From assembly GCA_019423345.1 (NCBI GenBank), contig JAHZBN010000007.1, positions 46,911 through 110,910 on the forward strand: DNA of 64,000 bases, given 5' to 3'. Positions within the stretch are counted from its first letter, which is position 1; each line of letters starts with the position of its first letter. The stretch comes from Butyricimonas sp. Lineage in GTDB: Bacteria > Bacteroidota > Bacteroidia > Bacteroidales > Marinifilaceae. Shown here piece by piece: positions 5,355-63,782 of the stretch. A program made the position numbers and the translations under genes. The notes under the pieces were generated by a model. It made no database searches and was not told the DNA's origin. It was given only the letters and a program-made list of their open reading frames with translations.

Positions 5355-5366
5355 ATTTAAATATAC

Positions 5367-10287: not shown

Positions 10288-10293
10288 ATAGCC

Positions 10294-10321
10294 ATGGACG
10301 ATCGTTTTTACGGTCGTCCAT
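10294..10321 (+). other. intercistronic stem-loop (11-bp stem incl. one G-U, 6-nt loop), no U-tract
   Basis: atggacgatcg/ttttta/cggtcgtccat, between the stop at 10287 and the ATG at 10341. Confidence 0.45.
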
Positions 10322-10340
10322 CGAATACAACAAAGAAACT

Positions 10341-22200: not shown

Positions 22201-22350
22201 ATTCACATTTACCTAAAAAAGAGAACCTTCTCAGAGAAGATTCCCTTTTGAAACATAACTCAAAGGTTCGATTTCTCAGGTCTGACACCTTTGGTGGATG
22301 TTCATCATTACAACGTAAGTAAAACGTTACATTTAATTTCTCACAAATTT

Positions 22351-25806: not shown

Positions 25807-25812
25807 TGTATC

Positions 25813-45949: not shown

Positions 45950-48900
45950 TTATTTCTTTTTCGGAAGATCTCTTTCCGGGTTAAAATCAGCCATGAACTT
46001 GAATTGTTTGCTGAGGATCTTTTTCTTGTCACGGCTACCACTCTTGTCCATGGCAGCGTAAACAGCCGGAACAATAATCATCGTGATAATCGTGGAGAAG
46101 ACCATACCACCGATTACGGCGATACCCATCGGTCTCCAAGTTTCAGAACCCTCACCAGCACTAATTGCCATCGGCACCATACCTAAGATGGTGGTTAACG
46201 AGGTCATCAATACCGGACGCAAACGAGAACGACAAGCCATCGCAATCGCGTCGTACAAGCGGATACCCCGTTCACGCATCAGGTTGATGAAATCGATCAG
46301 CACAATACCGTTCTTCGTAACGATACCAACCAGCATGACGGCTCCTAAAGCAGCAACGATACTTAATGTCGTGTTCGTGAGTAATAATGCCAAAATTACA
46401 CCGGTGAATGCAAACGGGATTGCCAACATAATGATGAACGGCATCTTGAATGATTCGAACTGGGCTGCCATCACGATGTATACTAACATCAAGGACAAAA
46501 GTAATAACATGGTCAATGAACCGAAAGATTCCTGTTGATCTTCGAAACTACCACCAATGTACATCGTCACGTCTTGTGGAATATCTTCCATGTTATCGAT
46601 AAGAGCCTGGGCAGCACCTGCGATCTCTCCCAATGCGACACCTGCTGCGGGAGTAATCGAAACCTTTAGGATACGTTGTTTACTCTTACGTTCAATATTT
46701 GGCGGGGAGAAATATTCTTTGATTTCTCCAAGTTCTTTCAGACGTACTTTTTCTCCTTTACCATCGGTGATTAGAATATTTTCTACGTCAGTAATAGAGG
46801 AGCGATATTTCTCATCAAGACGAACGATAATATCATATTCTTCACCATCTTCTTTGAATTTACTATTACGATACCCGTAAATACGATTACGTAAATAACT
46901 TCCTACATCTGATGTACTTAGTCCGTGGCGAGCTAATTTATCTTGATCGAGAACAATCTGTAATTCAGACTTATCTTCATCCCGACTGATCTTGATGTCT
47001 TCTGCTCCCGGAATCTTTCTAGCTTGTTCTGCAATCGCATGAGCTAGGTTCGTGGTTGTATTGAAATCATGCCCCATGATCTCGATGTCAACATTGTTAC
47101 CACTCATTGAACCTCCACTTGATGTGGTTACCGTGTACTGGAGAATATCAGGAAAACGTTTTAAAATTCCGCGAACTTGGTCGGCTATCTCAAAAACACT
47201 GCGGCTACGTTCTTTTAAGTCGAGAGTTCTCAAACGCATATTCAAGATATTATTACCAGTACTGTTCATCATAGAAGCGAAAGAAGCTTCCTCTTCGCTA
47301 CCATATGACAAGTTGATCAATGTGATTTCCGGGATTTCAGCACGAATGATGGAGTCAATGTCTAAAGCTACCTTTTTCGTAACCTCAACTCGTTGTCCTG
47401 ATTGCATCTTGGCATATACACTCATGTAGTTCTGGTCATTCTGAGGCATGAAGTCCGTTTTGATCAACTTTGCAAGGGTTAATGATGCAAAGAACAAAGC
47501 GAACATAGAAACAATTGTAACCGTTTTGTGACGAAGAACCCAACGAATGAGTTTTTCATATGCGGAATCAAGTTTATCCAGCATTCTGGACACAAAACGA
47601 TAGAAACTGAATTTACCTGTATCTGTGTTATCTTGGATTTTCATCAACTGGGATGAAAGCATTGGTGTTAACGAGATAGCGGTTATCGTAGAGGTACATA
47701 CCGTGATACAAACGATCCAACCTAATTGCTTGAACAGAATACCGGTCATTCCGGTTACTAATGTTAATGGGAAGAACACGGCAACTGTTACAAGGGTTGT
47801 TACAATTACAGATAACCAAACTTCGTTTGTACCATATTTGGCGGCTTCCCGTGGGCGGCTTCCTCGGTCAATATGTTTTGTGATATTTTCAAGTACCACA
47901 ATAGCATCATCCACTACCATACCGATCGCAATGGAGAGAGAGGATAATGAAATCACGTTGAGTGATTCTCCCGTTGCGAACAGGTAGATAAAGGCAACAA
48001 TCAAAGAGATCGGAATGGTTAAGGCAATAATGAATGTTGCTCTCCATCGTCCTAGGAATAGGAATACGACTAAGACCACGAAGATCAAAGCGTACATTAA
48101 GGATTCCTGTAGGTTATTGATAGATTTCACAATAAAATCGGAGTTATCCGAAATGATTTGAAATTTGATATCCGAAGGCAATTCTTTCATTGCTTTCTCG
48201 ATCTCTTTTTTAGCTTGATTAGCCACGGCCACAGCATTGGCATCAGTTTGTTTGGTTACCATCAAAACACCACCATTTCCTCTATTAATGGTTTGCTCCA
48301 GTGTGATATCTTTCAAGGTATCACGGACAGTTGCAACATCATGTAAATAGATCGTCTTGTTGTTTTGTGTTCCCAACACGAGGTTTTTGATTTGATCACT
48401 TTCATCAAATTCACCTTCAACACGTAGCGTGTAGTCCATGTCTCCCATCTTCACGTTACCGGAAGAGATATCCTGATTTTCGGTCAAAATTTTATTCCCG
48501 ATTTGTTCCAATGTTAAGTTGTAAGCATCCAGTTTATTCGGATCAAGGTCTACATACACCACGCGTACAGGAGAACCGGCAATGTTCACGGATGCAACCC
48601 CATCTACCCGGTTCAAACGAGTGATTAATTTATCGTCTAGGATCTTGTCAATACCAGGATAGGATTCTTTAGCTGTTACAGCATAAATAAGGATAGGCAT
48701 CATGGAGGTATTGAAACGCATGATGGTCGGACGGTCAATATCGTCCGGAAGATTATTCATCGCTTTATCCACGGCATCCCGTACGTCATTTGAAGCTTCG
48801 TCCAAATTTACTTCCCATTCGAACTCTAGTGAAATTACCGCCAAATTATCATAAGACGTGGAGGTCATTTCTTTTAAGTCGTCTACCGAGTTTAATTGAT

Positions 48901-49105
48901 CCTCTAGGATCTTTGCTACGTTCTCTTCAATATCGGCAGCGTTGGCTCCAGGATAGGTCGCCATGACCGTAATGTAAGGTGGGTCCATTTTTGGATACTG
49001 GTCCACTGGCAATTGTATATAGGAGGCAACACCCAATACCATGATGGCAAGGAAAACCATTAAGGTTGAAATGGGTTTGTTGACCGCTGTATTATATATA
49101 CTCAT
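45950..49105 (-). CDS. RND efflux transporter permease (AcrB/HAE1-like)
   Basis: 1051 aa, 12-TM/two-loop RND architecture, typical N-terminus MSIYNTAVNKPISTLMVFLAIMVLG. Confidence 0.95.
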   Translation of the reverse strand: MSIYNTAVNKPISTLMVFLAIMVLGVASYIQLPVDQYPKMDPPYITVMATYPGANAADIEENVAKILEDQLNSVDDLKEMTSTSYDNLAVISLEFEWEVNLDEASNDVRDAVDKAMNNLPDDIDRPTIMRFNTSMMPILIYAVTAKESYPGIDKILDDKLITRLNRVDGVASVNIAGSPVRVVYVDLDPNKLDAYNLTLEQIGNKILTENQDISSGNVKMGDMDYTLRVEGEFDESDQIKNLVLGTQNNKTIYLHDVATVRDTLKDITLEQTINRGNGGVLMVTKQTDANAVAVANQAKKEIEKAMKELPSDIKFQIISDNSDFIVKSINNLQESLMYALIFVVLVVFLFLGRWRATFIIALTIPISLIVAFIYLFATGESLNVISLSSLSIAIGMVVDDAIVVLENITKHIDRGSRPREAAKYGTNEVWLSVIVTTLVTVAVFFPLTLVTGMTGILFKQLGWIVCITVCTSTITAISLTPMLSSQLMKIQDNTDTGKFSFYRFVSRMLDKLDSAYEKLIRWVLRHKTVTIVSMFALFFASLTLAKLIKTDFMPQNDQNYMSVYAKMQSGQRVEVTKKVALDIDSIIRAEIPEITLINLSYGSEEEASFASMMNSTGNNILNMRLRTLDLKERSRSVFEIADQVRGILKRFPDILQYTVTTSSGGSMSGNNVDIEIMGHDFNTTTNLAHAIAEQARKIPGAEDIKISRDEDKSELQIVLDQDKLARHGLSTSDVGSYLRNRIYGYRNSKFKEDGEEYDIIVRLDEKYRSSITDVENILITDGKGEKVRLKELGEIKEYFSPPNIERKSKQRILKVSITPAAGVALGEIAGAAQALIDNMEDIPQDVTMYIGGSFEDQQESFGSLTMLLLLSLMLVYIVMAAQFESFKMPFIIMLAIPFAFTGVILALLLTNTTLSIVAALGAVMLVGIVTKNGIVLIDFINLMRERGIRLYDAIAMACRSRLRPVLMTSLTTILGMVPMAISAGEGSETWRPMGIAVIGGMVFSTIITMIIVPAVYAAMDKSGSRDKKKILSKQFKFMADFNPERDLPKKK

Positions 49106-49165
49106 ATTTTAAGTTTTAAATTTTGAATTTTAGATTTCAGGCGTATCAATCCGTGAATTAAATGT

Positions 49166-50203
49166 TTACTTGTTAATCGAAAGTGGTGAGCCATCAACCA
49201 AACGTCCTTGTCCGACAACAATTAGTTCGTCACCCTCATGAATTTCGTTACTGATTAATTCAACCTTATCATCAAAACGTTTACCGAGTTTTACTCCAAC
49301 GCGTTTCGCCTTACCATTTTTATTCAAGAATACATAACGATCGTTAGAACCTTGTAATTTCAATACGGCAATAGCCGGAGCAACTACGGTTTCGGTATTA
49401 CCGATGAAGAAATTGATTGTACCGTACATACCCGGTCTTAAAGCTTCGTTTTTGTTTGGAATCTTGACTTCAACGGTAAAGGTTCTAGATGCCGGATCTA
49501 TACTCGGATAGACGATACTTACTTTTCCTTCGAACACTTGGTCTGGATAAATGTTACTTTTTAATTCAACTTTTGTTCCGGGTTTCACCGTTAAGTAATA
49601 TTGCTCGGATAAATTTACATAAGCTTTTACCGGATCTATTTTTTCAATGGCAATAATAGAGGGTTTGGTTGCTCCACCGAAAGAAGTTCCCGTGTAGAGT
49701 TCTTTATCTTCAAAATATTTTCCGGTAACAACTCCATCAAAAGGAGCAAGCATTTTTGTGTTCTCTTTCAAGAACTCCACGTTTGCCTTGGCCACTTCAT
49801 ATTGTGTTACAGCTGCGTCGTAAGCTTGTTTAGAAATACTTCCCGTTTTATTTAATTGAATGGCGCGATTATATTCTGTTTCCAAGTTTTTTAGTTGAAC
49901 TTCAGCTTGTACGAGTTGAGTTTTATCCATTTCTACGAGTACTTGCCCTTTTTTGATCTGATCTCCAACTTCCACGTGTATTTTTTCAATTCTTCCTGTG
50001 GCAGCAGGAGCGTAAAAGACTTGTTTATCAGCATTTAGGTTTGCAGCATACTCCAAAGTTCTGGCAATATCCGTTTTCTCTAGTTTTTGTACTTTAACGG
50101 GAATTGCTTCCACGACATCACCCTCTGTCGTCTTATCTTTTTTGCCTGAGCAACTGGCAAGGATAGCTATCGCTATAATCGATAAAATGAAATTCTTTAC
50201 CAT
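49166..50203 (-). CDS. RND efflux periplasmic adaptor (MFP) lipoprotein
   Basis: 345 aa. Lipobox LASC. Coiled-coil plus barrel pattern. Confidence 0.9.
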   Translation of the reverse strand: MVKNFILSIIAIAILASCSGKKDKTTEGDVVEAIPVKVQKLEKTDIARTLEYAANLNADKQVFYAPAATGRIEKIHVEVGDQIKKGQVLVEMDKTQLVQAEVQLKNLETEYNRAIQLNKTGSISKQAYDAAVTQYEVAKANVEFLKENTKMLAPFDGVVTGKYFEDKELYTGTSFGGATKPSIIAIEKIDPVKAYVNLSEQYYLTVKPGTKVELKSNIYPDQVFEGKVSIVYPSIDPASRTFTVEVKIPNKNEALRPGMYGTINFFIGNTETVVAPAIAVLKLQGSNDRYVFLNKNGKAKRVGVKLGKRFDDKVELISNEIHEGDELIVVGQGRLVDGSPLSINK

Positions 50204-50238
50204 TGTATTTCTTTTTTTGTTTTATTATTCAAGTTGTT

Positions 50239-51525
50239 TTATCGAGGAAGTTGATTATACAGTTTTTCCAAACTTACTTGTGCTTGTAGCAAGCTTAGAA
50301 TTGCTTCCGTGTAATTTGTTTCTGCTTGCAGGTAGTTATTATTTGCTTGTGTCAAATCCAAACTGGAAACAGCTCCCAGCTCGTATTTTCTCTGGTAATT
50401 CTTTAATACCCGCGTGGCAACATCGATATTCTCTTTTTGCAGGTTGTAATTTTCCATGGCGTTTTTCAAGTTGAATTTCAACTGTTCGTCCTGCACGTTC
50501 AACTGGTCTTGCAACAAACTTTTCTGTATATAAGATTGTTCCAATGTGATTTTGGCTTGTTTAACCTTGGAGTCCCGTTGCAAACCGGAGAAAATTGGAA
50601 TGTTCATCGTGAGGCCGGCCGTGTGTTTCGGGCTCATATCCAATTCTGGTTTCAAAATCTTGTAATTGAAGTTGTAATTACCGGAGATCGTGGGAGCATA
50701 ACTCCATTTTTCCAATCCCAACATCTTTTTATTCAACTCGGTTTGCGTGGTAATCAATTGGTAGCTCACGTTGTTATTGATGTCAAATTTTTCAACATAC
50801 AAGCGAGAGGATTTATCGTTTTCCAGGAACATATCCAAGGCATCCGTGAGTTTGATCGGGGTTCCTGCTTCCAATCCCAGTTGGAGACGCAATAAGTTAT
50901 AATTTACGGCAACCGTTCTTTCCATAGATAGTAAGCTGTTTTTCAGTTGTCCCACGTTAATGCGGATTTGGTCCACGTCCGTCTCTTCAACTGTTCCGGC
51001 CTTGTACATGTTATCGGTGTGCTTGTAGATTTTATTCATATTCTCTAGGTTCTGACGCAGAATGTCGAGCATTCTCTCGGAGACCAACACCGTGTAGTAT
51101 GAATTATAAATATTCTCAATAATGTCCAGTTCCGTGGATTCAACTTCTTGCTCGGTCAAACGTACAGCGATTTTACTGGTTTGTAAGCCAAGGATCCATT
51201 GTCCGCTGAACAATAATTGTTGCAAACCTACCGTAAGGTTAGACTGGTCTTTCATTTTTATCGCTTGATTGCCGAAATTCATCTTGTAATTGAAATTCGT
51301 GGAATACGTTACAGTTCCATTAACTTGTGGCAACCCTTGCGACACGGATTCCCGTACCTTCTGGCGATACAAATCAATATTCATCTGCGAAGATTGCAGT
51401 TCCTTGTTGTGCTTGATGGCAAACTCCACTGCTTGTTGCAGCGATATCGTTTGCGGCGCTTCCTGTGCGCAAAGCATCCATGGCACGAAAAACATCAGGA
51501 GGAAAAGAGTCATTCCTTGTTTCAT
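50239..51525 (-). CDS. TolC-family outer membrane efflux protein
   Basis: 428 aa. Signal peptide. Duplicated OEP repeats (…LSLQQAVEFAIKHNKELQ…). Confidence 0.9.
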   Translation of the reverse strand: MKQGMTLFLLMFFVPWMLCAQEAPQTISLQQAVEFAIKHNKELQSSQMNIDLYRQKVRESVSQGLPQVNGTVTYSTNFNYKMNFGNQAIKMKDQSNLTVGLQQLLFSGQWILGLQTSKIAVRLTEQEVESTELDIIENIYNSYYTVLVSERMLDILRQNLENMNKIYKHTDNMYKAGTVEETDVDQIRINVGQLKNSLLSMERTVAVNYNLLRLQLGLEAGTPIKLTDALDMFLENDKSSRLYVEKFDINNNVSYQLITTQTELNKKMLGLEKWSYAPTISGNYNFNYKILKPELDMSPKHTAGLTMNIPIFSGLQRDSKVKQAKITLEQSYIQKSLLQDQLNVQDEQLKFNLKNAMENYNLQKENIDVATRVLKNYQRKYELGAVSSLDLTQANNNYLQAETNYTEAILSLLQAQVSLEKLYNQLPR

Positions 51526-51613
51526 AGATTATAGATTTAATTATTTATTTTTTCCGGGAAATTTCTCAAGTGTTTTTTCTCTCGTAACAAAACTTGTACC
51601 AAAAAAAAATCGA

Positions 51614-52249
51614 TCACCCGTCTTTTGGTTGTTTTGCCGTGTCCCTTAGGCGTTCAAATTCTTTTAGACCTTTTTCTGTGGATATAGCGTAAATGAAATT
51701 GATAAAGATCGTTGAAATAATTACCGAAATCGGATATTCAAGCTTACTGGTGATTTCAGGATCTTTCAGAAAGTGCAATTGTTTACCTAACAGGTACAAT
51801 TGTAATTCTTTGTCAATATCCTTCCGGAAGAGTTCTTGTTTTATACCGTTATCCAGTAATGCCACGAGAAATTTCTTCGTTGACTCCTCTTCTTGCTTGG
51901 CTACTCTTTCGTACACGGCCGGGTGGTATTTCCTTAAATCAAAATGATTGGCAGGTAAGCGGCTACCCAAGTCACTCACCATGAAATCCCGAATTTCGCT
52001 CATGACCACGATCGGGTTTTTCTTGGCTAGTTGATTAACATCCGTGTTTTTTATTTTTTCATCTCTCCTGTACAACATCACTTGCTCCACCACGTCGTCT
52101 TTATTGGCAAACTGTTGGTAGAGTGTTTTTTTCGAAATTTTCAAGTGATTCGCTATATCATCCATGGAGGTACTTCTTAATCCGAATCTCAAAAAAAGAT
52201 CTGAGATAGCGGCTATAAGTTCCCTTTTTTGTTTTATATTTTCTTCCAT
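51614..52249 (-). CDS. TetR/AcrR-family transcriptional regulator
   Basis: 211 aa. N-terminal HTH FLRFGLRSTSMDDIANHLKISKKTLYQQF. Confidence 0.85.
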   Translation of the reverse strand: MEENIKQKRELIAAISDLFLRFGLRSTSMDDIANHLKISKKTLYQQFANKDDVVEQVMLYRRDEKIKNTDVNQLAKKNPIVVMSEIRDFMVSDLGSRLPANHFDLRKYHPAVYERVAKQEEESTKKFLVALLDNGIKQELFRKDIDKELQLYLLGKQLHFLKDPEITSKLEYPISVIISTIFINFIYAISTEKGLKEFERLRDTAKQPKDG

Positions 52250-54432: not shown

Positions 54433-55428
54433 CTAAAAATTGTATAACGCATGTAACTGGAAGAATAATTCTGTTCCGTCTTGGAATATACATTTGCAAC
54501 GAGGGGAAAGACGTTCTAGTTTCACGAATTCCCATTCTCCGATTTTCTCATCTTTATCCGTGAAAACAATAACACTTTCTCGCATATTTTTTTGAATAAG
54601 TTCTGTGGCCAATTCTTCATAACGTCCTTCATTCGTGTAATATATTTCCTTTATTAGTGCTTGAATGCTACTAAATTGTTCAACCGTTGAGCGAATCCGG
54701 ATGTTATTGAATTCTGTTACTAAATATAAATTCCCATTTTCAATATTCATGGAAAGGTTGTAGTGATCTCCTCCTTCTTTTAGTAGTGTAATTTCTCTTA
54801 GCATTCTCTTTGCGATAAGTCCGGAGACCATGTCATCATCATTTATATTCATTTTGATCGTTGCGCTGTAAGGAGGATATTCTTCTACTTGTATAGCCTC
54901 AGAGGTTTCTTTGTTGTATTGTTGTACTTGGCGAAATAAAACTTTTTCCTCGTTATAAACTTTAGTTTCAAGGTAAACATTGGTACTATAATTAATTGTT
55001 GCAATGAAATGAAGATCATTTTTAGACTGGTCCGTCTTGGAGGAAGGAAAGAAGATTTCCATGAATCCGGCAGCATTGATTGTGGTGTCGAAGTCCTGTT
55101 TGTCTTTATTCCAAACTAGTTTCATTCCGGTAAACGTGTTCTCTTTGCTTGGGTCTGAACTACGAGAGTTTATAAAATCGAGAATATTAAAATCAAAGTT
55201 TATATGGTAATAATTCATTATATCGAATATAGAATTATTTTTTCCCATTTCGTTAAACTCTTTAGCCAAGGTTACGCATGAGTTGATATTGTCTTCGATT
55301 AAAGTTCTTAATTCGGAAGAGGGCAACTTCGTGTATGGCTTGTCGTAATCGGTAATAATTTTGTCATCGTCATCGCTACATGCTACAAGAGTCGTAAGCA
55401 GACATAATACATACAAGATTTTTTTCAT
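54433..55428 (-). CDS. hypothetical lipoprotein, last gene of the HK-RR operon
   Basis: 331 aa. Lipobox LVACSDDDD. No family recognised. Confidence 0.5.
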   Translation of the reverse strand: MKKILYVLCLLTTLVACSDDDDKIITDYDKPYTKLPSSELRTLIEDNINSCVTLAKEFNEMGKNNSIFDIMNYYHINFDFNILDFINSRSSDPSKENTFTGMKLVWNKDKQDFDTTINAAGFMEIFFPSSKTDQSKNDLHFIATINYSTNVYLETKVYNEEKVLFRQVQQYNKETSEAIQVEEYPPYSATIKMNINDDDMVSGLIAKRMLREITLLKEGGDHYNLSMNIENGNLYLVTEFNNIRIRSTVEQFSSIQALIKEIYYTNEGRYEELATELIQKNMRESVIVFTDKDEKIGEWEFVKLERLSPRCKCIFQDGTELFFQLHALYNF

Positions 55429-55633
55429 TTCTTTATTTTTATGGTGATAATTTCCGCGAAAATATAAAAAATGACATAGTTTACATAGGGCGTTGAAATT
55501 ATTCTTGCGGGAATTTAATTTATTCTTATTTTCTATTTTTAGAAAGTCATTTTCATACGATTATGTCGCATGATGGGTGAATTGTGTTGTATATTTGCTA
55601 TATATTATGGTCGAGTGATTGGTGAAGGTAGGT

Positions 55634-56344
55634 TTAGCTTGGTGAAGGGGCGGTAATTAGCATATATCCTTCTTCGTAATCATTTCCGATGTACTCGATC
55701 TTGATGGATGGATCCTTTTTTAATGGTTGCCTGATTCGACACACGTATTCCTTTATCCTTTTTCTTTTGCCAATGGTGGCATCTTTCCAAATTCCCTTCA
55801 TGATGTAATCCATGTTGGCAATTTGATTGCTTTTGACGCATAGTAATTGTAGAAGGCGTGCTTCGCTGGAACTTAGCAGGGTTGCTTCTCCTTGGATGGT
55901 TACCGTGCGTGTAACAACATTAAATGTTGTGATGGGAGAGAGTTCATACACGTGTGGGACGTTTAAGCATGTAATCATTTTATGGCGAAGGGCTTTCAAA
56001 TGGGCGATCAAAACATCCGGAGTACGGTTTTTGGGAATGAATTCATCTGCCCCGGCATCCAGTGCGGCGATTTCTTTTTCCGGTTCTCCGTGGGAAGTAT
56101 AGATGATAATACGTGTTAGCGGGTCTTTCTTCCGGATCAATCGGGTTACTTCGATCCCGTCTTTCTGAGGCATGTTGAGATCGAGTAGTAGAATATCGGG
56201 CTTTTGACGATTGTAGGCATCCCATGCTTTTTCCCCGTCTGCGGCGATGTCGACTATGAATTCGTTTTCTTCTAGGATGATTTTTGTTAATTCAGCTTCG
56301 AGTTCATAGTCTTCTGCATAAAGAATCCTCATCTTGTTTCCCAT
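55634..56344 (-). CDS. OmpR/PhoB-type response regulator (receiver + winged helix)
   Basis: Receiver: ILYAEDY…PDILLLDLNMPQKDG…AGADEFIPK. C-terminal winged-helix LSSSEARLLQLL…YVCRIRQPL. The start may be the inner ATG (MRILYAED). Confidence 0.85.
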   Translation of the reverse strand: MGNKMRILYAEDYELEAELTKIILEENEFIVDIAADGEKAWDAYNRQKPDILLLDLNMPQKDGIEVTRLIRKKDPLTRIIIYTSHGEPEKEIAALDAGADEFIPKNRTPDVLIAHLKALRHKMITCLNVPHVYELSPITTFNVVTRTVTIQGEATLLSSSEARLLQLLCVKSNQIANMDYIMKGIWKDATIGKRKRIKEYVCRIRQPLKKDPSIKIEYIGNDYEEGYMLITAPSPS

Positions 56345-56353
56345 CTTGTTGTT

Positions 56354-57682
56354 TTATTTTATAGGTAATATCACGGTAAAGGTTGTGCCTGTTCCTACCA
56401 CGCTTTCCGCTGTAATCGATCCCCCGTGTGCCCGAACAACCATTCGTGCGAAATACAGACCTTGCCCGTGGCCATTGATTTTCGTGTCGTTTTGGTGATC
56501 ACCCCTGTGGTAGCGCTTGAAGATATGTTTCAAGGCTTCGGGGGTGATACCCGTACCGTTGTCTTTCACCTCGATGCGAATAGCGTTTGGGTTGATGTCT
56601 TTACACGTGATTCGGATATGTACTTTTTCTCCGGCATATTTTAAAGCGTTATCGATTAAATTTAGGAATACCGGTTGTAAAAAATTAGGGTCTCCGGCTA
56701 TCACGTGTCGATCGGAAAGGTATTGGAGTTGAATATCGGCCTGTTTCTCTTTTACTATATTCCATGAGTCCGAACAACTTAGTTCATCCAACATTTCATA
56801 CAGGTTAAAATCTTTAATTTTCAAGCGCAAACCATGGGCATCCGTGGATTGAAGTAATATCCGGCTGATGGATTGTAATACGTTATTCAATTCGGTTGTA
56901 CTCTTTCCCAGTAAGATTTTTTGTTCGGGAGGAAGAGTTTTGTAAAGTATGTAGTGAAGTTTAAGTTCGGTTTCAATGGGGCGTTTCAAGTCATGTACGA
57001 TATTATGCACGAAAATCTCTCGGTATTTTCCGGCTCTTTTCTCCCAATGAAGCGTGTGAAAAAGCGAAATAACACAGAAAATAAGTAGCAGGGAAATGAA
57101 AAAAACTAATGAGATATGTCCGGAAGCCAAGTCTAAAAATAGTGTGAGAGGGTAATTATAAGAGGCGTATAACGTGTCTTTGGCAAGAAAACCTAACGGA
57201 ATCTTTAATTCACACTCTTGGGAAGAGTTTCGATGGGGTGGATAGGAATCTTTGATTTGATGGATACTATCCTCGATGGCAAAATGAATGGCAAAATTTT
57301 TGATGACATGGGTATCTCGTTTTGCTTGCAAGTAGGAGTGAAAGTGTTGCAAGGTCCAACGGGAGGTATCCTGTATGTCGTAATCACTTTGTTCGATAAT
57401 TTGATATATTTTGTCTTCTGGTTTTAATTGAAAACGGAAAATCTGATCGTTTATGACATAGGTTAATCGGTTATTCTTTGGATTGAAACTGACGGTTTGT
57501 TTCGGATCTGCCATTTTCATGTTAAAATCATAAATCGTGTTGGTGATCCATTCATTTTGCTGATTGATGTATATTGTTTTTTCATGTCGGTATAATTGTT
57601 CTATGTAAATTAATTGATTAAATAGAATAATTATCCCGGCAAGAATGGCAATAAACCAGTAATATCTTAAACTCCGATCCAT
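56354..57682 (-). CDS. sensor histidine kinase (2 TM, ~170-aa periplasmic loop, HisKA + HATPase_c)
   Basis: The start at 57682 (MDRSLRYYWFIAILAG…) is preferred. The track's 57955 start overlaps the divergent peptide gene. H-box FVHNIVHDLKRPI. G-boxes DNGTGI, GHGQGL, GTGTTF. Confidence 0.85.
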   Translation of the reverse strand: MDRSLRYYWFIAILAGIIILFNQLIYIEQLYRHEKTIYINQQNEWITNTIYDFNMKMADPKQTVSFNPKNNRLTYVINDQIFRFQLKPEDKIYQIIEQSDYDIQDTSRWTLQHFHSYLQAKRDTHVIKNFAIHFAIEDSIHQIKDSYPPHRNSSQECELKIPLGFLAKDTLYASYNYPLTLFLDLASGHISLVFFISLLLIFCVISLFHTLHWEKRAGKYREIFVHNIVHDLKRPIETELKLHYILYKTLPPEQKILLGKSTTELNNVLQSISRILLQSTDAHGLRLKIKDFNLYEMLDELSCSDSWNIVKEKQADIQLQYLSDRHVIAGDPNFLQPVFLNLIDNALKYAGEKVHIRITCKDINPNAIRIEVKDNGTGITPEALKHIFKRYHRGDHQNDTKINGHGQGLYFARMVVRAHGGSITAESVVGTGTTFTVILPIK

Positions 57683-57705
57683 TTTCGGTATTCTTTCCGT
57701 TTTGT

Positions 57706-57713
57706 CAAAGATA
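57706..57713 (-). promoter_or_regulatory. -7 promoter box for the HK-RR operon
   Basis: The minus strand reads tatctttg, about 24 nt upstream of the HK ATG. Confidence 0.4.
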
Positions 57714-57720
57714 TTGATTT

Positions 57721-57738
57721 TGCAACCCACGTGCAACC
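57721..57738. promoter_or_regulatory. direct repeat TGCAACC-N4-TGCAACC (11-bp phasing), candidate OmpR-type response-regulator site
   Basis: tgcaacccacgtgcaacc in the 112-bp divergent intergenic region between the HK and peptide genes. Confidence 0.3.
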
Positions 57739-57794
57739 GTTTTCTTCGAAAATTAAGCTTTAAAGGTCTATTTTTATCACAAAAATTTACGATT

Positions 57795-58031
57795 ATGAAG
57801 AAAAAGTGGTACGTGTTAATAATTTTAATGTTTATGGCCTGTGCGATCATGTTGAACTTGGATTTGAGTATCCAAGGGAATAGTAATAACAATTCCACGT
57901 TAACCTTAGAAAATATTGAAGCTTTGGGATCCCCGGAATCCGGGGGAGGCTTCAAATATTGTATTCAAGCGGGGGGATATTGTTTTGAGAATGGGATTAA
58001 AGTTAAAGGTATATCAATGAAGGACGAATGA
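57795..58031 (+). CDS. NVEALA-family-like small membrane-anchored/secreted peptide
   Basis: 78 aa from the ATG at 57795: MKKKWYVLIILMFMACAIMLNL…TLENIEALGSPESGGGFKYCIQAGGYCFENGIKVKGISMKDE. The NIEALG motif is in the place of NVEALA. ATGA overlap with the next gene. Confidence 0.6.
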   Translation: MKKKWYVLIILMFMACAIMLNLDLSIQGNSNNNSTLTLENIEALGSPESGGGFKYCIQAGGYCFENGIKVKGISMKDE

Positions 58032-59068
58032 AACATTTGGTATTATATTGTTTGTTAGGAAGTCTCTCTCTAGGATGCACGGAGCATGGCATGGAGAGTG
58101 ATAGTTTGAAAGTTATAAAAAGTGAACGGGTAATTACCACTCGTTTGGTCGACATGTCACGTTGGGGGATACATGAGGTAAACGGGTTCGTGAAACAGGG
58201 AGATCGGATTGTAGTGGAAACGGGAGGCGAATACGGAGAGATCAAGACCATTGATTTGGATGGTCCGGGGACGTTGGATTTGACCGGTCGAGGAGAATCT
58301 TTAAATGATCGTTTCCGGAGTTTGAGCTCGTTCAACTCGTTTGACGGGAAGACCGTGACGGCCTTGGATTTCAGGAAGGGAGAGCTGATTGTGAAGTCGA
58401 TCTCTTCTCTCGCTCGTTCTGGCAACTCGGAGACCGTAGTCCAGCTTCCCTCGGGTGAACAACATTTGATTGCGGCACAGGTCGGGGATCGAGTGATCGC
58501 CACGGGCTTGTATGAAAAGGGACGCTACTTGCTATATTCCTTACCGGATCAGTCGGCACGTTATTCTCTTTCTTACCCGGATCATCCCGTTTATCCCGGC
58601 TTGCAGGAAAAGACAAAAGCGATGCTTTACGCTAGCAACGTGTTGCGTGTTCGTCCGGATGGAGGAGCGTTTGTTTGTGCCGACATGTATAGCGGGGTTA
58701 TAGACTTTTGCCGGGTGACGGCTGATTCTATCGAGCGGGTACGATTGGTTCGATTACATTACCCGGAAGTCGAGGTATCGGAAATCCCTTCTTCACGAGT
58801 GACTTATTGCCAGGGGAACCGTTTCGGTTTTCTGGATGTTGCGGTAACAGAAGATAAGGTGTATGCCCTTTATTCCGGGAAAACCTACAAGATGGATCGG
58901 GGCAGGGCTTTTGAATCTAACTGCCTGCTCGTGTATGATTGGGAAGGGAACCTGATCCGGACACTTTATTTTGGTGATGCCTTGACGGGGATTAGCTATG
59001 ACCGGGAAGAGGGGATGTTGTACGGGATTACGGAAGACGGGAGTTTGATACGTGTGAATTGTCTATGA
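58028..59068 (+). CDS. 6-bladed beta-propeller lipoprotein (TolB-like / BF3164-family-like)
   Basis: 346 aa. Lipobox SLSLGC. C-terminal pattern VYALYSG…LLVYDWEGNLIRTLYFGDALTGISYDREEGMLYGITEDGSLIRV. Confidence 0.6.
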   Translation: MKHLVLYCLLGSLSLGCTEHGMESDSLKVIKSERVITTRLVDMSRWGIHEVNGFVKQGDRIVVETGGEYGEIKTIDLDGPGTLDLTGRGESLNDRFRSLSSFNSFDGKTVTALDFRKGELIVKSISSLARSGNSETVVQLPSGEQHLIAAQVGDRVIATGLYEKGRYLLYSLPDQSARYSLSYPDHPVYPGLQEKTKAMLYASNVLRVRPDGGAFVCADMYSGVIDFCRVTADSIERVRLVRLHYPEVEVSEIPSSRVTYCQGNRFGFLDVAVTEDKVYALYSGKTYKMDRGRAFESNCLLVYDWEGNLIRTLYFGDALTGISYDREEGMLYGITEDGSLIRVNCL

Positions 59069-59080
59069 AAATGTAAGATT

Positions 59081-60808
59081 ATGTTAGCGATAAAAAGTAT
59101 TCCAATATATTTTATTTTACTATTGGCCCCGGTGTTATGGCACTTGGATCATTCGTTACCGGGAATAACAGCGGGTTTTGTAGGAGTATTATTACTGGTC
59201 ATTTGTTCTGTCTTGTTCTTTAAACATCGCGGTTGCCGTTTTAATTTGGTAGATTTATTGTTCGTGTTGTTCGTGGTCTGGTACGTGGGGCGAACAGTTG
59301 GAACGGTGTCTTCCATGTATACTTGGAAGTTATTGTTAGGGAGTGCAGCCATTATTTTGTACGCTTATGTTAGAAATATCGAGCTGAAAGCGATCTACTT
59401 TAACGTGCTTTTTATTGCAGGAATTTTTCAGGCGATATGGTTTTTTGTCCAGTTACTAGGTTTGTTTCCCTCGTATAACTATTTATACCCGGGGACAGGA
59501 GGATTTATGAATCCTGCTATTCTTGCTGTTTTTCTCGCTATAGCTTGTTTAGCCGGGGTGGTTGGTTTTTATTATAAAGAGAGGGTGTATGTGCGTGTAC
59601 TCCGGGGGGCGGGAGTAATATTACTACTTGTCACGTTAGGATGGCTAGCATCTCGTGCGGCTTGGGTTGGTTTAATGCTAGGCATTTTATGGATCGTGCT
59701 GGTCGGAAGGCGATGGAGATTTACCCGTTTCTTGGAAAATATGTTCAAACAATATCGTTTTGGGAAGTATATTCTATTCTTGCTTGTGATTGCCATCTCT
59801 GCAAGCGTGATTTATATTCTTTATTTGTTGCATCCGGCTTCCGTGCAGGGACGTTTTTTAATCTGGCAAGTTGCCGGGAGAATGTTCCTAGATGCTCCAT
59901 GTTTTGGTGGTGGTTCTTTCGCCGCGTTGTATATGCCTGCGCAAGGAGCGTGGCTCGAAGCGCATCCCGGGTCTTCCTTCGCGATGGTTGCAGGGAATAA
60001 TGAACATGTCTTTAATGAATTTCTACGAGTGGCTTGTGAAACCGGGATTGTGGGGTTACTTCTTTTCGTGGGGTTAGTCGTGACGTGTTTTTATTTTGCT
60101 GCAAAAGGGAATCGAATTTCTCGCTTTACCGGGGGTATTTTAGTCGTGATTTTGGCATTCGGTTTGTTTAGTTATCCTCTTTCCGTCGAGGTTGTAGGTG
60201 CCATTGCTATTATTTCTTTAGCTGTTATATCTCGTGATGCACGTCACGCGAGAGAATGGGTTGTTAGTTTGGATAATAGTTTCACTTTTATACTAAGGAT
60301 AGCCGTGGTCTTGTTCGTTTTTGTGTTGACTATCGAGTATTATCACGAGAAAAAGGCGGATGTTCTCTTGACAAAGACACGAGGAACGGAACCTGTGAAT
60401 TGGAACGAGCTAAAGACATGTTACGAGCGTTTGGGGGGTAATCCTGATTTTGTCCTGTGTTACGGGCGAACTTTGTTTACCCGTGGCGAATTTTCGAACG
60501 CTTTACCCGTTCTTGAAAGAGGTTTTTTGTTAAGACCGACTTCCGAACTTGTTTGCGATCTGGGTAGATGCTACATGTACCGGGGACAGTGGAAGGAGGC
60601 AGAACAAAAATATCGTCTTGCAGCCAATATGGTTCCCGCGTATATCACGCCCCGTCATCTCTTGTTTAAATTGTATGATATGCAAGGAATGTCACGAGAG
60701 GCAGGGCAAGAGGCAGAGTACATGCTGACAATGCCCGTGAAGATTGTAAACTCTTCCGTGATTAGAGCCCGTGGACAAGCAAGGGAATTTTTGAAAAGTA
60801 AAGAGTGA
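59081..60808 (+). CDS. O-antigen ligase/polymerase-like (Wzy_C) polytopic membrane protein with a C-terminal TPR region
   Basis: 575 aa, about 10+ TM segments. Wzy_C-type loop NEHVFNEFLRVACETGIVGLLLF. TPR-like tail (…RGQWKEAEQKYRLAANMVP…). Confidence 0.75.
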   Translation: MLAIKSIPIYFILLLAPVLWHLDHSLPGITAGFVGVLLLVICSVLFFKHRGCRFNLVDLLFVLFVVWYVGRTVGTVSSMYTWKLLLGSAAIILYAYVRNIELKAIYFNVLFIAGIFQAIWFFVQLLGLFPSYNYLYPGTGGFMNPAILAVFLAIACLAGVVGFYYKERVYVRVLRGAGVILLLVTLGWLASRAAWVGLMLGILWIVLVGRRWRFTRFLENMFKQYRFGKYILFLLVIAISASVIYILYLLHPASVQGRFLIWQVAGRMFLDAPCFGGGSFAALYMPAQGAWLEAHPGSSFAMVAGNNEHVFNEFLRVACETGIVGLLLFVGLVVTCFYFAAKGNRISRFTGGILVVILAFGLFSYPLSVEVVGAIAIISLAVISRDARHAREWVVSLDNSFTFILRIAVVLFVFVLTIEYYHEKKADVLLTKTRGTEPVNWNELKTCYERLGGNPDFVLCYGRTLFTRGEFSNALPVLERGFLLRPTSELVCDLGRCYMYRGQWKEAEQKYRLAANMVPAYITPRHLLFKLYDMQGMSREAGQEAEYMLTMPVKIVNSSVIRARGQAREFLKSKE

Positions 60809-60883: not shown

Positions 60884-62158
60884 ATGAAAAAAACGAAGTT
60901 TTGGTTTTTGGGAATAATCTTAGCCTTGATTTATTCCTGTTCAGACGACTTTGATGCCGTCGAGGAATCCCCTCAAGATTTTGGGATTTCGGAAGCACAG
61001 TCTTATTTTGAGACGAATGCGACGGATTTAGCTCCGCTTATGTTCTCGAATCCTCTCGCGAGGTCGACTAATTTGGTGATGCCGGAATTGATCCCGGAGT
61101 GGGATAAGGCAATAGAAAGTATTGAAGATGATTACCAAATAACGGAGATACCTCTTTGGTCCCAGCCGAATGTAATTTGCGTGGAAAGTATCATTAAAGA
61201 TTATGAATTCTTTGCTGAAAATAGCATATCTTGTGGACGTCGCTTGGTGATAGCACGAGGAAGTGATGGGAAGACGGATATGTTTGTGGCCACGTTGATC
61301 CCTGATGAGAAATATTCAAAAAATCCTGAGGGAGCTTTTACTGGGCGTGTACTTTATTCGGAACTCAATGGTAAGTTTAGAAAAGCCGTGAGGTATAAAA
61401 ATGGAGAATTAGAAGGGGACTTGTTAATAGTAGGAGCTTATGGTTTTGCAATACAGACAGAGAAAGATGTCCCCACGGGTTATTCTAAACTTACTTTCAT
61501 GGAAGGAAATCCCGTTTTACGAGCCGCAACATATTCTAATAGTGAAAGTGGGGGAGGAAGCTGGGGAGGCGGTGGCGGCGGAGGTGGAATTGGCGGAGGC
61601 GGAATTGGTGGCGGTGGTAGCGGAACTGGAGGAAGTGGAGGTGGAACTGGAGGTGGATATGATCCAGATTATGACCTAGGAGTTGCTGCTCGAGAAAAAA
61701 TAATATCAGATTTGAATTATGGTAAGACGCAGATGGTATACGTGCAGCCGAGAAGTATTGGGGGATATAATTTACTTGATGGAGCTGGACTTGTAACAAA
61801 TACGTATGGTATAGCCACGTCATGTTTCAATTTTTTAAATGAAATGACGCGGAAGCAACTTCAGCTATTTGGTAATTCTGTAGGATATTTGGGAGTAGGG
61901 ATAAGTTTTGCTCAAACAATTATCGCATTTACTGATGGTGATATTACGGGTAACGACATTTTAGGAGCTGTTTCTACGGCACTCGGTGCTGCTAGTTATG
62001 CTTTTGCTGCTGCTGGATTGTTTCCTGTTGCTGGAGTGGTTGGCATTGTTTCTACAATGATAAATTTAGCAGGACAATCTTTGTTAATTCAAGTTCCTTT
62101 AGAAGATGGTCATAATGTTTATGTATACATATCACCGAATATGACATCATTTGCTTAA
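60884..62158 (+). CDS. lipoprotein with N-terminal globular domain, ~36-aa poly-Gly linker and a glycine-zipper-rich hydrophobic C-terminal domain (candidate membrane-active toxin)
   Basis: ATG at 60884. Lipobox LIYSC. Linker GGGSWGGGGGGGGIGGGGIGGGGSGTGGSGGGTGGG. C-terminus VGYLGVGISFAQTIIAF … ILGAVSTALGAASYAFAAAGLFPVAGVVGIVSTMINLAG. Confidence 0.6.
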   Translation: MKKTKFWFLGIILALIYSCSDDFDAVEESPQDFGISEAQSYFETNATDLAPLMFSNPLARSTNLVMPELIPEWDKAIESIEDDYQITEIPLWSQPNVICVESIIKDYEFFAENSISCGRRLVIARGSDGKTDMFVATLIPDEKYSKNPEGAFTGRVLYSELNGKFRKAVRYKNGELEGDLLIVGAYGFAIQTEKDVPTGYSKLTFMEGNPVLRAATYSNSESGGGSWGGGGGGGGIGGGGIGGGGSGTGGSGGGTGGGYDPDYDLGVAAREKIISDLNYGKTQMVYVQPRSIGGYNLLDGAGLVTNTYGIATSCFNFLNEMTRKQLQLFGNSVGYLGVGISFAQTIIAFTDGDITGNDILGAVSTALGAASYAFAAAGLFPVAGVVGIVSTMINLAGQSLLIQVPLEDGHNVYVYISPNMTSFA

Positions 62159-62256: not shown

Positions 62257-62730
62257 ATGAAAAAATATCGTCGTTCTTTTTGGGCAGCATCCTGTGTAAA
62301 TTCAATGATAATACCATGGATAGTAGCGTTTGTATTCAGTTATTTATCAGTTAAAGATAGAATAGATATTTCGAGAGTACTTTCTTTTTATGGATTGATA
62401 TTTGGGGGTATTCCAACTTTAGTCATTTTGGCTTATTTCTTCGTGTCGGAGTTTTATGTTATCTTGTCAGATGATGCGTTGATCTTAAAGAATGCGATTT
62501 GTCCGTTTTGGAAGAAGAAAGTGTATTATAATGACATGGTGAAAGTAAAGATAATTTACTATGGAGGTGGTCCTTCAATTCCTTTCATGAAAATAGCTAC
62601 CACCAAGGCACAACGATCGGGGCGTTATTATCTGGATCGTGTTCGTCTTAAAGATTTTCCAGAGATAATAGATTTTTTGAGGGAGAAGGGGATTGAAGTT
62701 TATGTAAAGGGGATGGAATGTTTTAAATGA
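62257..62730 (+). CDS. two-TM protein with soluble C-terminal domain, array member A1
   Basis: 157 aa. TM1 IIPWIVAFVFSYL, TM2 GLIFGGIPTLVILAYFFV. Also LILKNAICPFWKKKVYY … RYYLDRVRLKDFPEIIDFLREKGIEV. Confidence 0.6.
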   Translation: MKKYRRSFWAASCVNSMIIPWIVAFVFSYLSVKDRIDISRVLSFYGLIFGGIPTLVILAYFFVSEFYVILSDDALILKNAICPFWKKKVYYNDMVKVKIIYYGGGPSIPFMKIATTKAQRSGRYYLDRVRLKDFPEIIDFLREKGIEVYVKGMECFK

Positions 62731-62781: not shown

Positions 62782-63237
62782 ATGAAAACCTTCCGTCGTT
62801 CTTTTGGGAAAACAACAACATTTAAACATATGTTCATGCCGTTTTTAATACCCTTATTGTTGTTTTTTATTTTTTACGATTATAATCTTAATTCAGTAGC
62901 ATGGTGTTATTTACTTTTAGTAGTATTAATATTTTTAATCGCTCTTATTTTTCAATTATTTTATATAGTATTGGAAGATAATTTTTTTGTTATAAAGAAT
63001 GGAATTTGTCCATTTTTGTATGAAAAACATTTTTATAAGAATGTAGAAAAAGTAAATATCAAACGTCCTGGAGGAATGACCCCTCCCTATATTCAAGTTA
63101 TTACGAAGAAAAATAGAAAACATGCGTGGAAATATATTATAGATTTAGTAGCTCCAAAAGAATATGACAAATTAGTTGAGGCTATTAAGTCAAAAGGTGT
63201 TATTGTTGATAACGAGAATCTTGTAAATTGGAATTAA
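62782..63237 (+). CDS. two-TM protein, array member B1 (divergent subtype)
   Basis: 151 aa. MKTFRRSFG…, FVIKNGICPFLYEKHFY, …YDKLVEAIKSKGV. Confidence 0.6.
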   Translation: MKTFRRSFGKTTTFKHMFMPFLIPLLLFFIFYDYNLNSVAWCYLLLVVLIFLIALIFQLFYIVLEDNFFVIKNGICPFLYEKHFYKNVEKVNIKRPGGMTPPYIQVITKKNRKHAWKYIIDLVAPKEYDKLVEAIKSKGVIVDNENLVNWN

Positions 63238-63314: not shown

Positions 63315-63782
63315 ATGAAAACATTCCGTAATTCTTTTTGGTCGGGTCGATGGGTACAATCAATATTTATACCATGGACGGTAGCGAATGTATTATGTGT
63401 TTTGATTGTAATGAATAATGTTGATTTTACGAAATTATTCTCATGGTATGGATTGATAATACTTTTACCGAACTTGTTATTTTATGGCATAGTATTCTTA
63501 TCAGAATTTTATATTATATTCTCGAATGACGCTTTAATCCTAAAAAATGCCATTTGTCCGTTTTGGACGAAAAAGGTTTTTTATGGAGATCCGGTAAAAT
63601 TAAAGATTATTTATTTTAGTGGCTATACAATACCTTACATACAAATCATAAGAGGTGCAAGAAAATTTGCTTGGCGTTATTATCTAGATCGTGTTCGTCT
63701 TAAAGATTTTCCCGCAATAATAGATTATTTGAGAGAGAAAGGGATTGAAGTTCATGTCAATGGAATGGAATATTTTAAATGA
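63315..63782 (+). CDS. two-TM protein, array member A2
   Basis: 155 aa. LILKNAICPFWTKKVFY … RYYLDRVRLKDFPAIIDYLREKGIEV. Closest to A1. Confidence 0.6.
   Translation: MKTFRNSFWSGRWVQSIFIPWTVANVLCVLIVMNNVDFTKLFSWYGLIILLPNLLFYGIVFLSEFYIIFSNDALILKNAICPFWTKKVFYGDPVKLKIIYFSGYTIPYIQIIRGARKFAWRYYLDRVRLKDFPAIIDYLREKGIEVHVNGMEYFK

Follow-up and report, generated by a model that had tools for sequence, protein, structure and literature searches.

We analysed a 64,000-nucleotide stretch of contig JAHZBN010000007.1 from Butyricimonas sp. (the window, to whose first letter all coordinates without a locus label refer), concentrating on a gene cluster in which a two-component system (TCS) stands back to back with an operon that opens with a small peptide of the NVEALA family. 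On the minus strand lie an OmpR/PhoB-type response regulator (RR; 55634-56344) and a sensor histidine kinase (HK; 56354-57682; 442 amino acids (aa) as called in public assemblies). On the plus strand follow the 78-aa peptide (57795-58031; Pfam PF14055), a 346-aa beta-propeller lipoprotein (58028-59068; PF15869, TolB_like), and a 575-aa membrane protein of the Wzy_C superfamily with a C-terminal TPR domain (59081-60808; PF04932), which we refer to as Wzy_C-TPR. The HK start (57682) and the peptide ATG are 112 bp apart, the peptide stop and the propeller start share the ATGA at 58028-58031, and 12 nt separate the propeller stop from the Wzy_C-TPR start. These open reading frames (ORFs) and spacings are all as given in a preliminary description of the region, which ended the operon at 60808 and so missed further genes of the same operon: a 424-aa lipoprotein polymorphic toxin (60884-62158) and three immunity-like paralogues with two transmembrane (TM) segments each (62257-62730, 62782-63237, and 63315-63782), recognised by their paralogy and TM segments and all on the plus strand. 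The plus-strand gaps after the propeller gene measure 12, 75, 98, 51, and 77 nt, and no terminator-like sites are found in the intergenic gaps between these genes.

An invariant regulatory module with a candidate operator

Related loci were collected from two directions. The propeller-side sample comprised homologue contexts and a metagenome scan of 80 loci, and the Wzy_C-side sample comprised the contexts of named homologues and a genome scan of 19 loci. The samples of 13 (propeller) and 27 (Wzy_C) lineages are biased; the locus scans used narrow alignments, as broad ones had no sufficiently conserved stretch, and lean towards Odoribacteraceae as a result. RR and HK on the minus strand, followed by the NVEALA and propeller genes, recur with one and the same layout in 69 loci, which group into 13 clusters (the propeller lineages) at 85% identity, with an RR in 69 of 69 modules and the HK in each adjoining the peptide gene divergently. 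The HK/RR pair, a direct repeat upstream of the peptide gene, a two-cysteine NVEALA peptide, and a coupled propeller together form one invariant four-gene module.

The RR carries a receiver domain (Response_reg, E=3.5e-26) and a winged-helix Trans_reg_C domain (E=8.3e-10), and its nearest NCBIfam model is RprY, with a score well below the cut-off. The HK matches HATPase_c (E=2.8e-28), and its TM segments at residues 9-27 and 190-208 delimit a periplasmic loop of 162 aa, close to the length of about 170 aa first estimated. Between the divergent genes, 74 bp upstream of the peptide ATG, lies the direct repeat TGCAACC-N4-TGCAACC (57721-57738), which has an 11-bp period and reads TGCAACC-CACG-TGCAACC here; a search of the 64-kb window that tolerated up to two mismatches gave no other match. 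Exact repeats of at least 6 nt with a period of 11 are present in 29 of 33 distinct upstream regions, whereas shuffled sequences gave 1.3 on average and never more than 6, and no repeats of period 10 or 12 occur in these 33 regions. The position of the repeat is fixed, at 72-95 bp before the peptide ATG in the 29 regions, and its word varies by lineage (GCAACC, TGCCACC in B. synergistica, TTATACAA, and AGGACAA), as one would expect if OmpR-type regulators and their operators co-evolve. The four regions that have no repeat belong to lineages whose RR winged helix diverges and falls below the Pfam cut-off.

The locus combines a winged-helix RR with a direct repeat spaced by about one helical turn, as is typical of OmpR/PhoB-type systems, and the repeat is a likely RR operator. 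Control of the locus by the TCS, which had been suggested from its adjacency, is thus supported by the conserved 11-bp-period repeat between the divergent genes, and transcription of the toxin and immunity genes, too, probably starts from the promoter under this repeat.

The NVEALA peptides and their propellers

The preliminary description assigned NVEALA, TolB-like, and Wzy_C domains to the three plus-strand proteins, and searches with profile hidden Markov models (HMMs) placed all three above the Pfam cut-offs. For the peptide the pass was marginal (28.8 bits against a cut-off of 27), and a family HMM built in this analysis recovered it at E=1e-28. The peptide consists, in order, of a single hydrophobic signal or anchor segment (residues 8-26), an N-I-E-A-L-G-S-P-E junction, a GGG stretch, and a C-x6-C tail (SPESGGGFKYCIQAGGYCFENGIKVKGISMKDE). 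In common with it, 67 distinct NVEALA peptides have a K/R-rich start, a hydrophobic segment, a spacer of about 15 aa, and a junction of the form N-[VI]-E-A-L-[TAG]-x-x-E, often with GG(G), ahead of a tail whose length has a median of 35 aa; the window motif NIEALG is a common variant among them, which places the peptide within the family. The A-L-[TAG] part of the junction would fit the -3/-1 rule of signal peptidase I.

The number of cysteines is even in 59 of 64 NVEALA tails, and in the TCS-adjacent class, to which the window peptide belongs, the two-cysteine loop is C-x6-C in 36 of 39 peptides. This tail is at least as conserved as the leader in eight of nine comparisons (45% versus 31% at the 59% propeller level), whereas the peptides of a downstream 'second' class have near-identical leaders and hypervariable cores with 4-6 cysteines. 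The conservation of the TCS-adjacent tail fits a signalling role, and the hypervariability of the second-class cores fits effectors. Sister loci additionally encode MauE (66 bits), an S26 signal peptidase (103 bits), DUF1573, and a thioredoxin-like protein that matches AhpC-TSA marginally (25.6 bits against a cut-off of 26). Bacteroides do not have a general disulfide-forming machinery (Coyne et al. 2019, PMC6671954), which would account for the dedicated oxidoreductases of these sister loci. As a separate observation, in loci of the L058-L088 type (for example L067 13188-13460) the second-class leader of 44 aa is almost identical throughout (MKKVKILVASVLFCAMGYVGY...NIEALT), and the cores of 40-80 aa, with 4-6 cysteines and hypervariable, resemble conotoxin-style diversification.

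Two assignments of the peptide were considered and discarded. A lipoprotein was rejected given that the cysteine of its signal varies in orthologues, and a GG-leader class II bacteriocin does not agree with its Sec-type hydrophobic signal or with a locus that holds no C39 or ABC gene.

The propeller scores 44.8 bits against TolB_like (cut-off 29.2), its lipobox cysteine (Cys17) is invariant among 31 homologues, and its AlphaFold2 (AF2) model is an all-beta propeller with a pLDDT of 85.6. Homologues are labelled 'BF3164 family lipoprotein' in one public source. Every NVEALA gene is paired 1:1 with its own coupled propeller gene, even where a locus holds more than one such pair, and of the four module proteins the propeller shows the highest conservation in eight of nine comparisons. 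A sequence search of the PDB with the propeller returned no match, and no match to known immunity proteins was found. Propeller residues 25-27 (DSL) and 233-235 (DSI) match the O-glycosylation sequon of Bacteroidetes, D-(S/T)-(A/I/L/V/M/T), of which the peptide and the toxin have zero copies.

A Wzy_C-superfamily protein with a TPR tail and a replaced histidine

Wzy_C-TPR scores 52.5 bits against Wzy_C (cut-off 31.7) and retains the conserved loop arginine (R258), consistent with membership of this superfamily; its TPR matches in Pfam all fall under their cut-offs. The closest named homologue is a Butyricimonas protein with 71% identity, and the exact protein is present in assemblies of the Human Microbiome Project (HMP) and of human-gut-type metagenomes. 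The protein has about 13 TM helices; the positive-inside rule, taken with hydrophobicity, would put both the R258 loop and the TPR tail, which follows the thirteenth helix, in the periplasm. A profile of the membrane part matches only WaaL of C. metallidurans in the PDB (7TPG, E=3e-7); a search with the single sequence gave no match there, and a full-length profile was swamped by TPR proteins. In the profile alignment to 7TPG, R258 corresponds to R265 and F311 corresponds to the histidine of A-H-N-D (H313 by count), so that the window protein has a phenylalanine at the place of the proposed catalytic histidine of WaaL.

This replacement is a property of the family. An exhaustive search yielded 1,785 clusters (E<=1e-10, 50% identity), from which 139 representatives were aligned. 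R192, S254, R258, Q288, N312, and G322 are conserved in 139 of 139, and both arginines that correspond to the arginines with which WaaL binds undecaprenyl pyrophosphate (Und-PP) are retained. Position 311 is F in 116, Y in 20, H in 2, and L in 1, that is, Phe or Tyr in 136 of 139 (98%), and in 132 of 139 the C-terminal tail is 100 aa long or longer. In PglS, which has 13 TM helices and a periplasmic C-terminal domain, the arginines are proposed Und-PP ligands, the H324A variant is inactive, and H324 has been structurally equated with the proposed catalytic histidine of WaaL (PMC12800693). Judged only through the WaaL alignment, the O-oligosaccharyltransferase features of Wzy_C-TPR comprise the arginines and not the histidine; the family thus appears to have an O-oligosaccharyltransferase architecture with phosphate-binding arginines and without the proposed base. 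No glycosyltransferase, Wzx, Wzz, flippase, or chain-length genes were found in the window locus or in the Pfam-labelled or ORF-mapped related loci, in which not all flanking ORFs were Pfam-scanned. An ordinary ligase of lipopolysaccharide (LPS) was rejected on the basis of this genomic context and the missing histidine.

Predicted toxin, immunity-like array, and TGL lipoprotein

The window toxin has an acidic stretch after the lipobox cysteine (C-SDDFD), an ...SNSESGGG junction, a 40-residue poly-Gly linker, and a hydrophobic, Gly/Ala-rich C-terminal domain with a hydrophobic segment at residues 375-393. Its N-domain of about 220 aa is family-wide (n=28); the window protein is 40% identical to a 535-aa Odoribacter protein over the N-domain only, the C-terminus being different, and the C-termini of the family are varied, including one M23 peptidase, with HExxH-type domains elsewhere. 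The N-domains end in T-Y-x-x-x-E-(S)-G-G-G (...TYSxSE(S)GGG). The toxin junction resembles the S-P-E-S-G-G-G of the peptide, which is suggestive of shared processing, but this idea is weakened by the many NVEALA peptides that have no GG.

The immunity-like paralogues are about 155 aa long, with two TM segments, 27-57% identity, and 30% GC, and a fourth lies just past the window end (L001 14753-15229). In related loci, such as that of B. muris (L014), toxins of this type are followed by arrays of 2-9 such genes. A shared N-domain, unrelated C-termini, and adjacent immunity genes are the hallmarks of a polymorphic toxin, and toxicity is predicted on this basis.

About 1.4-4.6 kb past the window end, on the minus strand (L001 15413-18213), are a Fic-domain gene and a gene for a 610-aa protein of a kind that we name TGL, a papain/transglutaminase-like lipoprotein of 500-700 aa without a Pfam domain. 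Its residues C223, H256, and D312 are invariant in 58 sequences, and in the AF2 model (pLDDT 90.3) C223 stands at the start of helix 223-236, with H256 and D312 on strands 256-261 and 310-312. Scores against Pfam Transglut_core are 18.6-21.3, below the cut-off of 23, and the C-terminal part has weak CBM6 and discoidin-type matches. A Foldseek search of the PDB with this model yielded nothing beyond noise from multi-domain beta-sandwich proteins, and transglutaminases scored E of about 0.03. A word-index protein search gave 893 matches at E<=1e-5 (90%-identity clusters), and among the 120 matches listed only one had a Pfam domain, a weak F5/8. The cargo that follows the four-gene module here therefore consists of the Wzy_C-TPR protein without its histidine, a lipoprotein polymorphic toxin, four immunity paralogues, and, further on, a TGL.

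A fixed front end with exchangeable cargo

The claim that the three plus-strand families co-occur in Bacteroidales was borne out, distant lineages included: Wzy_C-TPR is encoded no more than 10 kb past the TCS-NVEALA-propeller module in 6 of the 11 lineages for which 8 kb or more of downstream sequence is available. TGL is present in 8 and at least one of the two in 10 of the same 11 lineages. As a conserved linkage the claim stood in part, being recurrent in these six lineages and failing in the remaining five, which have no Wzy_C-TPR within 10 kb. Loci in which the propeller is only 37-41% identical (L035, L036, and L116) are still linked to Wzy_C-TPR, and one with a propeller of 25% identity (L038) has no HK/RR pair, yet encodes a Wzy_C protein 5.6 kb downstream. 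Linkage of the peptide/propeller module to Wzy_C-TPR is thus recurrent and not obligate.

Seen from the Wzy_C side, the company is different, and the peptide does not stand out as a preferred partner. Of the 27 lineages, 17 have TGL close to Wzy_C-TPR, 13 have the toxin, and 10 have NVEALA, and most of these 10 come from propeller-fetched loci; among the approximately 21 Wzy_C-fetched lineages, NVEALA and propeller are present in only three (L014, L021, and L029). The Wzy_C-TPR gene is usually followed by TGL, often with overlapping stop and start, and frequently also by a lipoprotein of the toxin family and then tandem small genes; it is usually preceded by neither peptide nor propeller.

Downstream of the module the cargo takes several forms. 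The window type comprises Wzy_C, toxin, immunity genes, and TGL; another comprises TGL, a second NVEALA, a propeller, a thioredoxin-like gene, and S26; and another comprises two DUF1573 genes, NVEALA, propeller, Wzy_C, a thioredoxin-like gene, and S26. The picture that suits these forms best is of an unvarying regulatory front end joined to exchangeable cargo from a recurring set.

More distant contexts contain related parts. In Draconibacterium mangrovi (L026 9713-19916) a Wzy_C-TPR homologue stands beside a complete GG-leader bacteriocin-type cluster, which encodes an 80-aa GG-leader cysteine peptide (...LVNLKGG-YNGGTC...), a C39-ABC exporter, two DUF5128 propellers, a C39-like/VKOR/thioredoxin fusion, and a LanC-like fragment. 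In a KSB1 metagenome-assembled genome, a Wzy_C-TPR homologue is found beside MauE, a DUF5128 propeller, and an M23 peptidase. Propellers and Wzy_C-TPR alike are thus recurrent accessories of loci for cysteine-rich secreted peptides.

Interpretation of the locus

Taking the anatomy and the comparisons together, we favour, with a probability of roughly one half, the interpretation that the region is the front end of a peptide-sensing, TCS-regulated interbacterial-antagonism locus of human-gut Butyricimonas. Support for it comes from the invariance of the four-gene module, the period-11 repeats, the conserved TCS-adjacent tail and hypervariable second-class cores, the operon gaps of 12-98 nt without a terminator, the toxin architecture, the immunity arrays, and the pairing of Wzy_C-TPR with TGL, and further from the even cysteine counts, the disulfide and processing genes of sister loci, and the bacteriocin context in Draconibacterium. 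In the mechanism that we envisage, the RR would bind the repeat and thereby drive the whole plus-strand operon, and the peptide would be exported by the Sec pathway and released at its A-L-G / x-x-E-(GGG) junction. By analogy with peptide-regulated systems elsewhere, peptide and propeller may then serve as an extracytoplasmic signal or co-sensor for the kinase. With its TPR tail facing the periplasm, Wzy_C-TPR could act together with TGL as a periplasmic maturation factor for exported effectors, leaving their chemistry aside; these effectors would be the toxin at this locus and the hypervariable cysteine-rich peptides with NVEALA leaders in the sister loci. The activity of Wzy_C-TPR itself is the least supported element of this scheme, and that it transfers an Und-PP-linked group, whether to the effector or to the producer's own envelope, is only a guess. 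All functional statements made here on the locus are read from its anatomy and context.

Several observations count against this interpretation. A signalling role for the peptide is proposed from analogy and from the conservation pattern. The kinase has a periplasmic sensor domain, unlike the polytopic pheromone kinases of Gram-positive systems, and the signal of the peptide is of the Sec type and not a GG leader. A cleavage site and a disulfide are predicted at the window locus, and S26, MauE, and thioredoxin-like genes are all absent from it. Foldseek matches of the propeller model in the PDB are limited to generic WD40-type propellers, with TM-scores of at most 0.5, and none is enzyme-like or receptor-like. 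The C-terminal domain of the window toxin matches no family, and this protein is called a toxin from its architecture only. Lastly, one lineage (L108/L109) carries only the TCS and two peptide/propeller pairs in the 10 kb of downstream sequence covered; with neither Wzy_C nor TGL nearby, it indicates that the four-gene module does not need either close by.

The alternative that fares best is one in which the peptide is itself a bacteriocin and the propeller its lipoprotein immunity protein or chaperone (compare LanI-type proteins), the two not forming a signalling pair and the TCS only switching the weapon on. The strict 1:1 pairing and translational coupling of NVEALA and propeller genes would be accounted for in this way, as would the cysteine-stapled tails, the hypervariable second-class cores, and the presence of DUF5128 propellers in a classical GG-leader bacteriocin cluster. 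The TCS-adjacent tail is conserved and not diversifying, however, the propeller is the most conserved component of the module, and it matches no known immunity protein; we give this alternative perhaps one chance in a few and regard it as doubtful.

We consider it unlikely that Wzy_C-TPR is a PglL/PilO-like transferase that glycosylates or lipid-links the NVEALA peptide with the propeller as a partner, which was the testable idea put forward in the preliminary description. The contiguity of the three genes (ATGA overlap and 12-nt gap), their co-occurrence in 6 of 11 propeller lineages, including distant ones, the two retained Und-PP-binding arginines, and the approximately 13 TM helices with a putatively periplasmic C-terminal domain, as in PglS (PMC12800693), are what the idea would lead one to expect. 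The comparative data do not follow it: five of the 11 peptide/propeller lineages have no ligase within 10 kb, and most Wzy_C-fetched lineages have neither NVEALA nor propeller, the usual neighbours of Wzy_C-TPR being TGL and toxins instead, and the proposed catalytic histidine is replaced by Phe or Tyr in 136 of 139 representatives. The peptide loop has no conserved Ser or Thr (23 of 39), and the tail is likewise without one. The Bacteroidetes sequon is missing from the window peptide, as it is from 64 of 65 tails, and for this reason general O-glycosylation of the peptide was discarded.

In a broader proposal, which we also hold to be improbable, Wzy_C-TPR and the TGL, with its Cys-His-Asp and CBM-like parts, would form an unrecognised periplasmic protein-maturation machine of Bacteroidota and relatives, in which an O-oligosaccharyltransferase relative without the histidine binds Sec-exported bacteriocin-like peptides and lipoprotein toxins through its TPR domain and conjugates or processes them with an Und-PP-linked glycan or lipid, the TGL cuts at E-(S)-GGG, and the peptide-sensing TCS is in control. 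Such a machine could be regarded as a Gram-negative, extracytoplasmic counterpart of glycocin maturation.

The least probable alternative, and one that we judge very unlikely, is that two unrelated modules happen to be neighbours and that Wzy_C-TPR is an envelope glycan ligase or polymerase for LPS or exopolysaccharide, providing for example surface self-protection and acting on neither peptide nor toxin: each module does stand alone in some genomes, Pfam places the protein in the O-antigen ligase superfamily, and in Bacteroides the BSAP toxin genes are reportedly co-inherited with LPS-glycan genes that remove the target of the toxin (work of the Comstock laboratory), but no glycosyltransferase, flippase, or chain-length genes were seen in the Pfam-labelled or ORF-mapped related loci, the two modules are found next to each other in more than one gene order and with propellers of only 25-41% identity, a terminator is absent from the 12-nt gap, and a protein substrate is suggested by the TPR tail and by the close coupling to a lipoprotein with Cys-His-Asp.

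Relation to known systems

In class II bacteriocin loci an induction peptide is encoded with its HK and RR (PlnABCD, SppIP/K/R), and NisRK-type autoinduction is comparable. The antagonism locus proposed here shares with the three-component systems of class II bacteriocins an exported-peptide gene locked to an HK/RR pair, a direct-repeat operator (here a candidate) upstream, and genes for a (predicted) antibacterial effector and its immunity downstream. It differs in having a Sec-type signal and an NVEALA junction in place of a GG leader and a C39-ABC exporter, a 162-aa periplasmic sensor in place of a polytopic pheromone sensor, an obligate co-translated propeller lipoprotein, and a Gram-negative host of the Bacteroidota. 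Bacteroidetocins (class IIf; PMC6671954) are likewise short cysteine-containing secreted peptides of gut Bacteroidales with dedicated thiol oxidoreductases, but have a GG leader and, besides a C39-ABC exporter, a 5-TM protein; none of the terms propeller, O-antigen, histidine kinase, and two-component occurs in the main text of that paper.

WaaL (7TPG/7TPJ) and the O-oligosaccharyltransferases PglL, PglS, and PilO belong with Wzy_C-TPR to the Wzy_C superfamily, and the Wzy_C-TPR family has both Und-PP-binding arginines invariant. The proposed catalytic histidine (WaaL H313, PglS H324) is, by contrast, Phe or Tyr in 98% of this family, and Wzy_C-TPR further has a TPR C-terminal domain and is coupled to TGL and to toxin or peptide genes rather than to LPS or pilin genes. 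Polymorphic toxin systems (PMC3482391) have in common with this locus a conserved N-terminal trafficking domain, swappable toxin C-termini, and immunity arrays, the difference being that the N-domain here is an unannotated lipoprotein domain with a T-Y-x-x-x-E-(S)-G-G-G junction. In the part of the polymorphic-toxin survey that was available (Zhang, Aravind et al. 2012, PMC3482391) the term 'O-antigen' is absent, which suggests that a link between Wzy_C-type proteins and polymorphic toxins is not covered in that part.

The preliminary description held that the three plus-strand families have no assigned function, and this agrees with what we found: a full-text literature search for NVEALA, BF3164, PF14055, PF15869, and DUF5128 returned nothing relevant, leaving the system undescribed in the searchable literature, a paper on mining Bacteroidales for ribosomally synthesised and post-translationally modified peptides mentions none of the locus components, and NCBIfam has no model for any of the three proteins. 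The known weapons explain only part of the antagonism that shapes the gut Bacteroidales community. The locus joins into one regulated system several families of unstudied function (NVEALA, the BF3164/TolB-like propellers, TGL, and Wzy_C-TPR, the last with about 1,800 clusters at 50% identity), and it offers handles for work on them: a putative operator, a possible signal peptide within reach of chemical synthesis, a pair of toxin and immunity genes, and a ligase-like enzyme without the canonical histidine. Should the ligase-like protein act on proteins, it would represent a new branch of the O-oligosaccharyltransferases, a family used for bioconjugate vaccines, and would bear on protein glycosylation in Bacteroidetes, for which a 2022 paper (PMC8729774) still listed the general O-oligosaccharyltransferase as unknown.

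Other features of the window

Downstream of the RR, on the minus strand, a gene for a putative lipoprotein of 331 aa (54433-55428) carries a lipobox-like LVAC-S sequence at the N-terminus of its translation. The protein has no match in Pfam or NCBIfam, and a homologue is absent from the B. muris locus and from the other related loci inspected; it is probably lineage-specific and peripheral, outside the conserved system. Further along the minus strand (45950-52249), beside dnaG, are a TetR regulator and an efflux pump of the resistance-nodulation-division (RND) type with OMP, MFP, and AcrB-type components. RND pumps also flank the Wzy_C-TPR gene in three related loci (L024, L025, and L038), which may be coincidence or may point to a possible export route. 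Elsewhere the window encodes a PmbA/TldD-like protein of 1130 aa (10254-13646) and, on the plus strand, two SusC/SusD-like pairs (1896-7292 and 22291-27750) in which SusC has STN and CarboxypepD_reg N-terminal domains.

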